A DNA stretch of 64,000 nt from Escherichia coli (lineage in GTDB: Bacteria; Pseudomonadota; Gammaproteobacteria; Enterobacterales; Enterobacteriaceae): assembly GCF_022846255.1 (NCBI RefSeq), contig NZ_AP025682.1. One strand, written 5' to 3'. Positions 40,501 through 46,500 of the stretch are shown here, piece by piece. The position numbers are program-made. The first letter of the stretch is position 1; each line of letters opens with the position of its first letter.

Positions 40501-43500
40501 GGACCAGAAGTTGTCCTGGCATGCCCAGCGGAACAGTACACACATGTCGCGATGGTTGCGTCCGTCACGTTCACGCATCAGGCGGATATCGTTAGCCCAC
40601 CCAGCAAAATTCGGTTTTCTGGCTGATGGTGCGATAGTCTTCACCATGTCAAACATCCACTCTGCGGCGGTCAGGTCTTCTGCTGTCCCCCACTTGCTGC
40701 CGCTCTGAATTGCAGCATCCGGTTTAACCACAGAAAGATCGTTTTCTGGCTGGTCAGAGGATTCGCCAGAATTCTCGGACGAATAATCTTTTCTTTTTTC
40801 TTTTGTAATAGTGTCTTTTGTGTCCCCCTGTTTTGAGGGATAGCAATCCCCCAATTTGAGGGATGTTTTATCCCTCGTTTTAGGGGATTTTCCCTCGTTT
40901 TGAGGGATACACCATTCTGAGATGTTTTTATTTGGTCCAAACATGCCGCCTTGCTGCTTGATAATATTCATTCTGACGAGTTCTAACTTGGCTTCATTGC
41001 ACCGTTTGACAGGTAACTTTGTAATCTCGCTAAGTTGAGAATCGGTGATTCTGTCCATTGGTTTATTCCACCCATAGGTTTTACGCAGAATGGCAAGCAG
41101 CACTTTAAACTGTCGCTTGGTCAGATCTGCGCCTGAATAAGCCTCAAGCAGCATATTTGATAGTCTGGCGTAACCATCATCGAGATCTGCCACATTACGC
41201 TCCTGTCCGGTAAAGTTACCTCTGCCGAAGTTGAGTATTTTTGCTGTATTTGTCATAATGACTCCTGTGGATTGATCCAGTCTTTCTACATCAGGCCTCA
41301 AAACTGTTGCAGCAGTCTTGAGGCTTTTCTTTTGTCAGCACCATGGCTACTTTCTTTGCTAGCTTTGCTAATTCCTCGTCTTCAACACCCCACTCCAGCA
41401 CAGCCAGAAGCATGGCCATCTTTGGGATAAAGCTGTCTTTCCATCGCGAAATTTGCGATTCATTAATCCCTAATGCATCAGCAACCTTTCGCTGACCACG
41501 TACAGCAATTCGATTCAGGATGTTGCTTGTGATTGCATTCGCTTTCTTGCGAGTACTTGTAAGTTGCATATGTAAGTATTTCCTTAACAAATAAGAAGTT
41601 ATACGCACCAACTGATGCGCGTTGTATTCCCGCATTTCGGCGGGAATAAGGACCATGACTGTTAAAGAGCAATTTGCTTATGCCGCTTTGCGATAAGCAC
41701 TTTCTTGATACTTCAGGGCGCCAGCTGTAACGACTTCCAGTCGATAGGCGTCTTTCTCTGGGATGACTTCCTTCCACTGAGAGACTGCTGCATCGCTAAT
41801 GCCTAACGCTTTAGCTACCGCACGCTGGGTTCCGAAGTGGTCGATAACATCTTTCTTGTACATAGACTCGCTCCGAAATTAAAGAATACTTAAATTATCT
41901 ATCAAAGGAATCTTAAGTCAAGTTTATTTAAGATGTCTTAACTATGAATACACAACTGATGGGTGAGCGTATTCGCGCTCGCAGAAAAGAACTTAAGATT
42001 AGGCAGGCTGCCCTTGGCAAGATGGTTGGCGTGTCTAATGTTGCTATTTCCCAATGGGAGCGTTCTGAAACTGAGCCCAATGGCGAAAACCTATTGGCTT
42101 TAGCCAAGGCTTTACAGTGCTCCCCTGATTACTTGTTGAAAGGAGAAGATAGTCTTTCAAACATTGCCTATCACAGCAGGCATGATCCAAGAGGTTCGTA
42201 TCCTCTAATTAGTTGGGTAAGCGCAGGATGTTGGATGGAAGCTGTAGAGCCATATCATAAGCGTGCAATAGATAACTGGTACGATACAACCGTAGATTGT
42301 TCAGAAGATTCGTTTTGGCTGGACGTAAAGGGTGATTCGATGACGGCTCCAGCCGGTCTTAGCATCCCGGAAGGGATGATAATACTAGTCGATCCTGAAG
42401 TAGAACCTCGTAATGGGAAGCTGGTAGTGGCAAAGCTCGAAGGAGAAAACGAGGCAACTTTCAAGAAGTTAGTTATTGATGCTGGCAGAAGGTTTCTAAA
42501 ACCACTTAACCCACAATATCCGATGATTGAGATCAACGGGAACTGCAAAATCATCGGTGTAGTTGTCGATGCAAAAATAGCAAACCTTCCATAAGGGGCA
42601 TTCGCCCCTTTTTTTCTTTCCTTTAAAAATCAAAGCAAAACTTAAACTTCGCAATAAAATTTAAGTTTTCTTCAAAAACGCCCTTGACCAACAATTAAAG
42701 AAATCTTAAATTTAAGTCATCAGCAGGACGCTGGTAGCCAAACGGAACAGATTGGCAGGCTCTTTAACATTGATGGGATTGTCCCGCCGAAATGCGGGAA
42801 CCAAAGAGTAGTTGGCTTTGGGGTGACGTGAAGTGCAGCTGCACGACGGCAACCGGAAGATAAGCACCCGGCGCGTCACCGCCAAAGTCAATCATCGGAG
42901 GTCAACATGGCAGTAGTCATTACATATCTGGCTGACGATAACGCCAGAAATCGCCGCAGAGCACGCAGACAGGCTCAACGTGAGCAGGCAATGCAAGAAC
43001 AGCGACTGGCGCGAAAAATTGCGCTAAAGCTCTCTGGTTGCGTCAGAGCAGACAAAGCAGCATCACTCGGAAGCCTTCGCTGCAAGAAGGCAGATGAATG
43101 CAGTGGAAGTATTTGCCTGCCAAACGTAGCCATTTACGCGGCAGGCTACCGGAAATCAAAACAACTGACGGCGAGATGATAAATTCATTTGCTAATTACT
43201 TGTTTTTGCCATGCTTATCCTGAGCGATAAGTTCATCCATAAGGCTGTCTGCCTTCCCGGCAAACCTAATGTAGCACTCATGCCTATAGCTTTCAGGGAT
43301 AACGAAACGGTCGGTATCAGGATATCCAACAGCAGGAGGCCTTCGAACGAGGAGTCCTTTTTTGAGCAATGAAATTGATTCATGAGCTCCCTTTTCCGTT
43401 TGTAGCTGGTTATTAGCGGCTACAGCGAATGCCAAATACGCTCTTTCTCCAAGAGTTAATGAATCAAACAAATCTTGCACATATTTTTCTTCTTTAGATT

Positions 43501-46500
43501 TGCGCTTCTGAGCAGCGGATACCTCAATTCTTTCAGTCACAGCGTGATAAGCGGAATTAACAACGCCGTTAAGCACATAGCTAACGCAAAACAACAGGAT
43601 GTAATACATCCAGTAATGAGGAAGGATTTCTGGATTATGCAGGTTTATCCATTCTTTTACGCTTACCGGCATAACAATAATCAATATGATCAGGATGATT
43701 AGCATATGAATCAACTGTTTAAGTGTCATTCCTTGCAGGAAAAAATGCATTAGTTCCTGCCACCATGAGTTGTTCATCGGCGTTTCTCTTTTGCTCTCTG
43801 TAGGGGTGAATAGAGTTTATCCGATTTCTCGCTGTAGGGGTACATGAGAACCACCGAGCCTGATGTGGTTAAAAGACAGGCACAATCTTTACTACCGCAA
43901 TCCACTATTTAAGGTGATATATGGAAGAAGAATTTGAAGAGTTCGAAGAGCATCCTCAGGATGTGATGGAACAATACCAGGACTATCCGTATGACTACGA
44001 CTATTGATACAAATCAATGGTGTGGACAATTCAAACGATGCAATGGATGCAAGCTGCAATCGGAATGCATGGTTAAGCCTGAAGAAATGTTTCCTGTAAT
44101 GGAAGATGGGAAATATGTCGATAAATGGGCAATACGAACGACGGCAATGATTGCCAGAGAACTTGGTTAACAGAACAACAAAGCTGCCTGATAGTGGCCT
44201 TTATTTTTGGCATAAATAACAGAATAAACACTGCACCGTGTATTCATTCCAACGAGTGAATACACGGAGCAATGTCGCTCGTAACTAAACAGGAGCCGAT
44301 TTGTTCTGATTATTGGAAATCTTCTTTGCCCTCCAGTGTGAGGGCGATTTTTTATCTATGAGGATATGAATAGGTGTCAAACATCAAAAAATACATCATT
44401 GATTACGACTGGAAAGCATCAATTGAAATTGAAATCGACCATGACGTAATGACAGAGGAAAAACTTCACCAGATTAATAATTTCTGGTCAGACTCTGAAT
44501 ACCGACTCAATAAACACGGCTCTGTATTAAATGCTGTATTAATCATGCTGGCGCAACATGCTCTGCTTATAGCAATTTCAAGCGACTTAAATGCATATGG
44601 TGTTGTGTGTGAGTTCGACTGGAATGATGGAAATGGTCAGGAAGGATGGCCTCCAATGGATGGTAGCGAAGGAATAAGAATTACCGATATCGATACATCA
44701 GGAATATTTGATTCAGATGATATGACTATCAAGGCCGCCTGAGTGCGGCTTTACCGCATACCAATAACGCTTCACTCGAGGCGTTTTTCGTTATGTATAA
44801 ATAAGGAGCACACCATGCAATATGCCATTGCAGGGTGGCCTGTTGCTGGCTGCCCTTCCGAATCTTTACTTGAACGAATCACCCGTAAATTACGTGACGG
44901 ATGGAAACGCCTTATCGACATACTTAATCAGCCAGGAGTCCCCAAAAATGGATCAAACACTTATGGCTATCCAGACTAAATTCACTATCGCCACTTTTAT
45001 TGGCGATGAAAAGATGTTTCGTGAGGCCGTCGACGCTTATAAAAAATGGATATTAATACTGAAACTGAGATCAAGCAAAAGCATTCACTAACCCCCTTTC
45101 CTGTTTTCCTAATCAGCCCGGCATTTCGCGGGCGATATTTTCACAGCTATTTCAGGAGTTCAGCCATGAACGCTTATTACATTCAGGATCGTCTTGAGGC
45201 TCAGAGCTGGACGCGTCACTACCAGCAGATCGCCCGTGAAGAGAAAGAGGCAGAACTGGCAGACGACATGGAAAAAGGCCTGCCCCAGCACCTGTTTGAA
45301 TCGCTATGCATCGATCATTTGCAACGCCACGGGGCCAGCAAAAAAGCCATTACCCGTGCGTTCGATGACGATGTTGAGTTTCAGGAGCGCATGGCAGAAC
45401 ACATCCGGTACATGGTTGAAACTATTGCCCGCCACCAGGTTGATATTGATTCAGAGGTATAAAACGGATGAGTACAGCACTCGCAACGCTGGCAGGGAAG
45501 CTGGCTGAACGTGTCGGCATGGATTCTGTCGACCCACAGGAACTGATCACCACTCTTCGCCAGACAGCATTTAAAGGCGATGCCAGCGATGCGCAGTTCA
45601 TCGCATTGCTGATCGTCGCCAACCAGTACGGCCTTAATCCGTGGACGAAAGAAATTTACGCCTTCCCTGATAAGCAGAACGGCATCGTTCCGGTGGTGGG
45701 CGTTGATGGCTGGTCCCGTATCATCAATGAAAACCAGCAGTTTGATGGCATGGACTTTGAGCAGGACAATGAATCCTGCACATGCCGGATTTACCGCAAG
45801 GACCGTAATCATCCGATCTGCGTTACCGAGTGGATGGATGAATGCCGCCGCGAACCATTCAAAACCCGCGAAGGCAGAGAAATCACGGGGCCGTGGCAGT
45901 CGCATCCCAAACGGATGTTACGTCATAAAGCCATGATTCAGTGTGCCCGTCTGGCCTTCGGATTTGCTGGTATCTATGACAAGGATGAAGCCGAGCGCAT
46001 TGTCGAAAATACCGCATACACTGTAGAACGTCAGCCGGAACGCGACATCACTCCGGTTAACGATGAAACCATGCAGGAGATTAACACTCTGCTGATCGCC
46101 CTGGATAAAACATGGGATGACGACTTATTGCCGCTCTGTTCCCAGATATTTCGCCGCGACATTCGCGCATCGTCAGAACTGACACAGGCCGAAGCAGTGA
46201 AAGCTCTTGGATTCCTGAAACAGAAAGCCACTGAGCAGAAGGTGGCAGCATGACACCGGACATTATCCTGCAGCGTACCGGGATCGACGTGAGAGCTGTC
46301 GAACAGGGGGATGATGCGTGGCACAAATTACGGCTCGGCGTCATCACCGCTTCAGAAGTTCACAATGTGATAGCAAAACCCCGCACCGGAAAAAAGTGGC
46401 CTGACATGAAAATGTCCTACTTTCACACCCTGCTGGCTGAGATTTGCACCGGTGTGGCTCCGGAAGTTAACGCTAAGGCGCTGGCCTGGGGAAAACAGTA

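Follow-up and report, generated by a model that had tools for sequence, protein, structure and literature searches.

A P22-type sieB gene with esc and sas counterparts in a lambda-like prophage of Escherichia coli

We analysed a 64,000-nucleotide stretch of an Escherichia coli genome (contig NZ_AP025682.1), referred to here as the window. The sieB coding sequence lies at 43196..43777 on the minus strand and is intact from ATG to TAA, encoding a protein of 193 amino acids, followed by a stop codon, that begins MNNSWWQELM. An in-frame TAA precedes the ATG at 43777 with no start codon between the two, so no longer reading frame extends upstream of sieB. On one side is the N antiterminator gene (42907..43179, plus strand), assigned by Pfam PF25694 (N_peptide, E 2.1e-15), by PHROG 271 and by its RefSeq label, 'transcriptional antitermination N peptide'; its product is 36% identical to P22 gp24. 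N and sieB are convergent, with stop codons 16 bp apart (43180-43195). On the other side are an orf28 homologue recognized from its translation (43921-44007, plus strand) and the ral antirestriction gene (43991-44170, plus strand; Pfam PF11058, Ral, E 5.2e-44), so that sieB runs against the pL operon. The repressor gene is found at 41944-42594, DUF2528/ea10 at 44374-44742 and the lambda cIII thermometer, identified with Rfam, at 44802-44860. An Rfam scan of 41500-45000 returned the thermometer and one chance snoRNA match. The resulting order (repressor, N, antisense sieB, orf28/ral, DUF2528/ea10, cIII thermometer) agrees with both lambda and P22. In the P22 SieB/Esc/sas system (Susskind et al. 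1974; Ranade and Poteete 1993) the N homologue is gene 24, and sieB has the same position between the N side and ral. The sequence-only reading, which had placed the gene in opposite orientation immediately after N, at the lambda/P22 sieB position, thus agrees with both phage records. It had also mentioned a deaminase gene elsewhere in the window, and we found one at 8218-9996 (plus strand), which fits the PADLOC dCTP-deaminase defence model with E 5e-127.

To P22 SieB, the protein for which the exclusion phenotype was defined by experiment, the encoded protein is identical at 158 of 191 residues (83%) without gaps (E 9e-113); the host of P22 is Salmonella rather than E. coli, and the window protein is longer by one C-terminal residue. 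It matches the Pfam SieB family (PF14163) with 79.5 bits and E 2.5e-22, against a gathering cut-off of 26 bits, while P22 SieB and lambda SieB score 101 and 103 bits. These two E-values, from Pfam and from P22 SieB, mean that the reading frame is not due to chance. PHROG 1301 matches the full-length protein as well (E 8e-122). NCBIfam and PADLOC hold no SieB model, and searches of both with the protein gave weak matches only (MSC_0624, E 0.007; 2TM-TIR, E 0.008), which fall on the membrane segment alone and were treated as compositional.

The gene is widespread. By tblastn, 91 phage records with features named sieB, Esc or superinfection exclusion match it, and sieB with its leader is present in 576 of 5,426 complete E. 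coli genomes (coverage of at least 80%). RefSeq already labels it 'super-infection exclusion protein B' (WP_001066173.1), in E. coli and within the same gene order. Full-length protein identity to WP_001066173.1 and to the products of the E. coli lambdoid phages 2G7b, ev207, PhiR11_1 and VT1-Sakai, annotated as SieB or as putative superinfection exclusion protein, is 91.7-99.5%; there is essentially no difference between them, and we regard them as the same gene. Judged by its sequence, the gene is a conserved, ordinary copy of the long-known prophage sieB, under a name already public in E. coli annotation.

The relationship to lambda SieB (NP_597779, 184 aa) is more distant. Direct BLASTP between the two proteins was not significant (E 0.58), and identity in a multiple alignment is 18%, the lambda coding sequence being a different allele. 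A profile built from the window protein's relatives, with lambda SieB left out, nevertheless matched lambda SieB with 78 bits over residues 12-173. The lambda protein shares PF14163, the position and orientation beside N, the same two hydrophobic segments, the basic linker and an L-[ST]-x-x-E ... S-L-x-x-K-G motif region. Since both proteins score above the PF14163 cut-off and are linked by the profile, the window protein would be a P22-type member of a family that includes lambda SieB. The alignments with P22 and lambda SieB proposed as a check on the sieB-type identity therefore gave a divided answer: that identity was borne out by P22 SieB and by PF14163, whereas lambda SieB failed to align pairwise and was reached through the profile. 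At the level of sequence the gene is of the P22 type, and its homology to lambda SieB is visible through profiles only.

Conservation extends into the sieB control region. The putative sieB promoter (43814..43844, minus strand) matches, without a single base difference, the promoter annotated in P22 at positions 1433-1463 of the P22 record (L001). Transcription is predicted to start from the A at 43807, which is identical to the base at the P22 RNA start, L001:1470, and alignment to P22 gives a 5' untranslated leader of 30 nt (43778..43807, minus strand). The P22 leader is 31 nt; relative to it, the window leader lacks one A and carries two substitutions. As a result of the 1-nt difference an in-frame TAA lies upstream, and the long upstream ORF of P22 is absent here. 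That ORF, of 242 codons, was reportedly described by Ranade and Poteete in 1993. A consensus promoter scan missed the sieB promoter, whose -35 element is weak, and detected no sas promoter. Because the sieB promoter is identical to the one mapped in P22 and is separate from pL, transcription may be possible in the repressed prophage.

A repeat search and a three-way alignment with P22 and lambda further revealed two direct copies of ACCCCTACAG on the minus strand, at 43832-43841 and 43798-43807. One copy overlies the sieB promoter on its -35 side, and the other begins at the transcription start. Across the whole window ACCCCTACAG occurs three times, against 0.05 copies expected by chance. Lambda has almost the same sequence from orf28 through the sieB promoter, with similarity ending just upstream of the start codon; in the three-way alignment, the likeness of lambda to P22 and the window stops right after the ACCCCTACAG copy at the transcription start.

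Both further components of the P22 locus have counterparts in the window. P22 esc, whose product shields the phage against the SieB that it makes itself, is annotated at L001:1573-2079 and starts at codon 25 of P22 sieB. The Met25 codon is kept in the window and the flanking DNA is 100% conserved with P22 esc, giving an in-frame internal reading frame of 169 aa (esc, 43196..43705, minus strand), the translation of which was checked. We infer that Met25 is probably the Esc start in this prophage as well. For sas, we used the 127-nt P22A-sas sequence given in Table 2 of PMC13397905, which maps to the minus strand of P22 at L001:1379-1505. Its homologue in the window lies at 43773..43898 on the plus strand, with four mismatches and one gap; Rfam has no sas family. 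The putative antisense RNA spans the sieB promoter and the entire leader and reaches 5 nt into the start of the sieB coding sequence. At the 105 nt given in the literature for sas, it would end near 43877, just past a hairpin at 43849-43870. The predicted folding of the homologue was no better than that of shuffled sequence (z -0.5, compared with -1.8 for P22 sas). The ribosome-binding region and start codon of sieB lie within the homologue and the Esc start, 72 nt downstream, lies outside it, which is the geometry needed for a switch between the two products.

The sequence-only reading had described the product as a membrane protein, and the in silico evidence points the same way. Mean Kyte-Doolittle hydropathy is 3.0 for residues 22-40 and 1.5 for residues 55-77, the latter just below the usual threshold of 1.6, and both segments are helical in a confident AlphaFold model (pLDDT 90.5). 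From the N-terminus, the model shows an amphipathic helix, two predicted membrane helices (about 19-37 and 55-77) and a basic stalk helix reaching residue 105; a cytoplasmic domain resembling a winged helix follows (about 106-160), and two helices make up the C-terminus. Residues 78-193 are predicted to be cytoplasmic, and the periplasmic loop would span only about 17 residues. A Foldseek search against the PDB returned nothing at E ≤ 0.001 (best hit 0.025), and we describe the domain as winged-helix-like on the basis of the model. Our literature search found no published account of the SieB fold, trigger or biochemical mechanism.

Divergence from P22 SieB is uneven along the protein, with 96% identity over residues 1-84 and 72% over residues 85-191. 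The dN/dS ratio against P22 sieB is 0.36 with dS 0.28, which indicates that substitutions have been filtered by selection; the ratio is below 1 in each segment tested and falls to 0.12 over the first 84 residues. With identity to P22 SieB down to 72% over residues 85-191, target range and Esc compatibility may differ from those in P22.

Taken with the literature, these results make it very probable that the locus is an orthologue of the P22 sieB/esc/sas module for superinfection exclusion, carried by a lambda-like E. coli prophage. The SieB phenotype and the logic of Esc and sas are described in PMC10461980, PMC12197685, PMC10002423 and PMC3224144, all of which cite Susskind et al. 1974 and Ranade and Poteete 1993. 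By analogy with P22, full-length SieB would make the cell shut down macromolecular synthesis when a superinfecting lambdoid phage is halfway through its lytic cycle, and the outcome would be abortive infection rather than a block of DNA entry. The sieB mRNA would also yield Esc from the internal in-frame start, here Met25, and Esc would inhibit SieB. A related phage that makes sas would shift translation from SieB to Esc and so evade self-exclusion. We infer from the identical promoter and the P22 literature that sieB is probably expressed, and active in exclusion, in this lysogen.

The same conservation could be read differently if the locus served mainly to supply Esc and sas, shielding the phage, when it infects a new cell, from the SieB of related prophages, rather than to defend the lysogen. 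The PHROG 1301 label, 'superinfection exclusion; inhibits SieB', includes this activity, conservation takes in the Esc start as well as sas, and Esc from either phage can bypass exclusion (PMC12197685). However, the 24 codons specific to SieB and their start codon are kept, within the strongly constrained first 84 residues, and would be needless if Esc alone mattered. The two roles are also compatible, one gene supplying both in P22. We therefore consider it unlikely that Esc and sas supply is the main role.

Less probable again, at less than one chance in ten, is that sieB is an inactive relic within a conserved mosaic pL-operon block and offers the lysogen no exclusion. Lambda, P22 and the window share an almost unchanged block running from orf28/ral to the sieB leader, part of which linkage alone could preserve. 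The reading frame is, however, intact and full length behind an unchanged promoter, the dN/dS and dS values against P22 speak for selection, and the gene is retained in more than 570 complete E. coli genomes and in many free phages.

We likewise give little credence, and slightly less than to decay, to the idea that SieB blocks DNA entry at the membrane, like P22 SieA or T4 Imm, instead of aborting infection. A small protein predicted to sit in the inner membrane and named for superinfection exclusion would suit such a role. Yet its 83%-identical P22 counterpart halts macromolecular synthesis once the lytic cycle is half completed and is set against SieA, which instead blocks injection (PMC10461980), and most of the window protein is predicted to face the cytoplasm, with its short periplasmic loop. 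Finally, an unrelated small membrane protein (holin-like or a toxin peptide) at the sieB position, as the failed pairwise comparison with lambda SieB and the weak NCBIfam and PADLOC matches (E about 0.007) on the membrane segment might suggest, is refuted by the P22 identity, the PF14163 score and the 78-bit profile link to lambda SieB.

The preferred reading, an exclusion module orthologous to that of P22, leaves room for a proposal on how SieB might work. In the model, two helices would anchor SieB in the inner membrane and hold a winged-helix-like cytoplasmic domain on a long stalk. The cytoplasmic domain would probably sense some phage product, and the membrane helices would probably be the effector, acting via loss of membrane integrity or energisation, while Esc, which lacks the first 24 residues, might poison SieB assembly. 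We tentatively suggest, as a possibility that we hold to be well short of even, that SieB is a membrane-tethered winged-helix sensor. Its domain at about 106-160, in the less conserved half, would recognise a DNA structure or protein of the phage in mid-infection, upon which the two-helix module would collapse membrane function. Esc would be dominant-negative, and the C-terminal half, 72% identical to that of P22, would confer a target range other than that of P22.

Two known systems offer analogies only. RexB is a membrane protein expressed by the prophage that aborts infection. The lambda holin and antiholin S105/S107 are two antagonistic products of one frame that differ at their N-termini (PMC3224144). 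Neither S105/S107 nor RexAB showed a sequence or fold relationship to sieB. In lambda, rexA and rexB sit between cI and pL; the corresponding stretch of the window, 42595-42906, is non-coding leader and offers no space for them.

Work on P22 and lambda between 1974 and 1993 had already described the sieB family, together with where the gene lies, the two proteins made from it and the antisense RNA, and the locus has little value as a discovery. For annotation, its use is that the prophage would carry at least two lysogen-protecting functions, sieB and the dCTP-deaminase-type defence gene at 8218-9996. Of wider interest, the modelled two-helix anchor and winged-helix-like domain may provide a concrete hypothesis for the biochemical mechanism of SieB.

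The 193-codon open reading frame proposed by the sequence-only reading is present on the minus strand at 43196..43777, with the sequence quoted there, and it cannot be extended upstream because its ATG is the first start codon after an in-frame TAA. The gene named as its neighbour, at 42907..43179 (+), indeed encodes an N-type antiterminator (Pfam PF25694, E 2.1e-15; a match to PHROG 271; 36% identity to P22 gp24) and converges with sieB, leaving 16 bp between the two stop codons. A LexA/CI-type repressor gene (41944-42594) lies on one side of this pair, while the other side carries an orf28 homologue (43921-44007) that overlaps ral (43991-44170), a DUF2528/ea10 gene (44374-44742) and a complete lambda cIII thermoregulator (thermometer) RNA element (44802-44860 (+); Rfam RF01804, 88.5 bits). 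This neighbourhood is the early-left operon of a lambdoid prophage, and sieB, antisense between N and the orf28 homologue, occupies the claimed position, the gene order being that of both lambda and P22.

Alignment to the two reference proteins, the check proposed for this assignment, gave different outcomes. P22 SieB aligned without gaps, with 158 of 191 residues identical (E 9e-113), while the pairwise comparison with lambda SieB was not significant (E 0.58), homology to the latter being detected by profile only. The window protein scored 79.5 bits against the Pfam SieB model PF14163 (gathering score 26), on which lambda SieB reached 103 bits, and it was covered over its full length by PHROG 1301 (405 bits). 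A profile built from relatives of the window protein, leaving lambda out, recovered lambda SieB with a score of 78 bits, the match covering residues 12-173, and a multiple alignment revealed a layout common to both proteins. The lack of significant pairwise similarity, together with the common Pfam model, profile and layout, therefore identifies a P22 rather than a lambda allele type within one family. One family member found by phmmer (P0024, multiple alignment A3) combines a P22-type membrane half with a C-terminal tail resembling that of lambda SieB (FSIDNDYWRELTLRWDP in P0024 versus FPIEDIYWTELVASYDP in lambda), and this combination suggests recombination within sieB between the two allele types.

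A search of a phage collection gave 91 records, and in 89 the match was nearly full length. Most records came from P22-like Salmonella phages and lambda-like coliphages, and the feature names were SieB, Esc or superinfection exclusion protein. Only 40 clusters were matched by phmmer among 1.84 billion cluster representatives; the family is narrow and, among phage records, found mostly in Salmonella and Escherichia phages. The gene and its leader occurred at a coverage of at least 80% in 576 of 5,426 complete E. coli genomes, and among the matches listed every full-length one bore the name super-infection exclusion protein B. The same gene, in the same order, is annotated with this name in E. 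coli VCSW7 (RefSeq WP_001066173.1).

Several other features of the prophage were observed. A 592-aa reading frame at 8218-9996 (+), presumably the deaminase mentioned in the sequence-only reading, adjoins the tail-fibre genes at the prophage edge; it carries a zinc-deaminase motif (HAE...PCxxC, 9694-9792), matches the PADLOC 'dCTPase' model for dCTP deaminase defence (E 5e-127) and is named 'hypothetical protein' by RefSeq in the five E. coli genomes sharing the region. Between exo and int, a 195-aa frame with a TTG start (49408-49995 (-)) matches only the C-terminal third of Pfam PF00145 (C-5 cytosine DNA methylase; positions 239-320 of 324, E 1.5e-7) and may be a truncated methylase gene. 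The VCSW7 locus differs in this interval, where it carries a LysR regulator and a PACE efflux gene as cargo. There, the integrase gene and torS are directly adjacent; the window frames at 51233-52306 (+) (357 aa) and 52401-55133 (+) (910 aa) correspond in size and spacing to that integrase and torS, suggesting that the prophage is inserted beside the torS locus.

A three-way DNA alignment revealed that the window (43798-43990), lambda (L002:1270-1480) and P22 (L001:1290-1500) share a near-identical block, which comprises orf28, the beginning of ral, the sieB promoter and the greater part of sas. The sieB promoter (43844-43814 (-)) and RNA start (43807 (-)) have no differences from those annotated in P22 (L001:1433-1463 and L001:1470). 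A 10-nt direct repeat, ACCCCTACAG, lies at the transcription start (43798-43807 (-)) and again 34 bp away over the promoter's -35 side (43832-43841 (-)); the window holds 3 copies against 0.05 expected, and the repeat may be a protein binding site or a sas pairing element. Lambda diverges directly after the copy at the transcription start, just ahead of the start codon, marking a mosaic junction to its divergent sieB allele. Some E. coli genomes match only about 100 bp of this block, with no annotation there.

We placed the P22 antisense RNA sas (sequence from PMC13397905, Table 2; L001:1379-1505 (-)) on the window. Its homologue at 43773-43898 (+), with four mismatches and one gap, overlaps the sieB mRNA at 43773-43807, covering the full leader and extending five bases into the coding sequence. 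In P22, esc starts at codon 25 of sieB; Met25 and the surrounding DNA are unchanged here, predicting an Esc of 169 residues from 43705, whose start lies outside the overlap, 72 nt further on. According to PMC12197685, PMC10002423 and PMC7067206, sas stops SieB synthesis while Esc synthesis goes on, and the predicted geometry fits this switch. A consensus promoter scan did not find a sas promoter, and folding of the RNA was not unusually good.

A relic gene is very improbable: dN/dS against P22 was 0.36 overall (dS 0.28), with values of 0.12 over residues 1-84 and 0.43 over residues 85-191, never exceeding 1, and the reading frame, promoter and both the SieB and Esc starts are intact, which together argue against decay. 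Identity to P22 SieB was 96% in the membrane half and 72% in the cytoplasmic half.

Membership of the SieB family is indicated by P22 similarity, the Pfam score, the profile match with lambda SieB, the gene's position, its promoter and the sas sequence, and the putative internal Esc start and predicted membrane localization are consistent with it. As the gene is already annotated as SieB, the proposed assignment is correct but not new; the sole new element is the predicted fold, a description of which was absent from the papers searched. By hydropathy, the first predicted membrane helix is strong (residues 22-40, mean 3.0), while the second (residues 55-77, mean 1.5), which precedes a Lys/Arg-rich stretch, is weaker and aromatic-rich. 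The AlphaFold model, from a 21-sequence alignment, was confident (mean pLDDT 90.5), with helices at residues 19-35, 38-47 and 56-105, a helix-strand-helix-strand-strand unit at residues 109-159 and two C-terminal helices. According to PMC10461980, P22 SieB brings macromolecular synthesis to a halt in the middle of the lytic cycle when the infecting phage is P22-like but not P22 itself, and PMC3224144 describes Esc as an inhibitor of SieB. Combining the model and hydropathy with this literature, we infer that a cytoplasmic winged-helix domain of membrane-anchored SieB would sense a mid-infection phage product, that the membrane module would then shut the cell down, and that Esc, as an N-terminally truncated subunit, would poison SieB.
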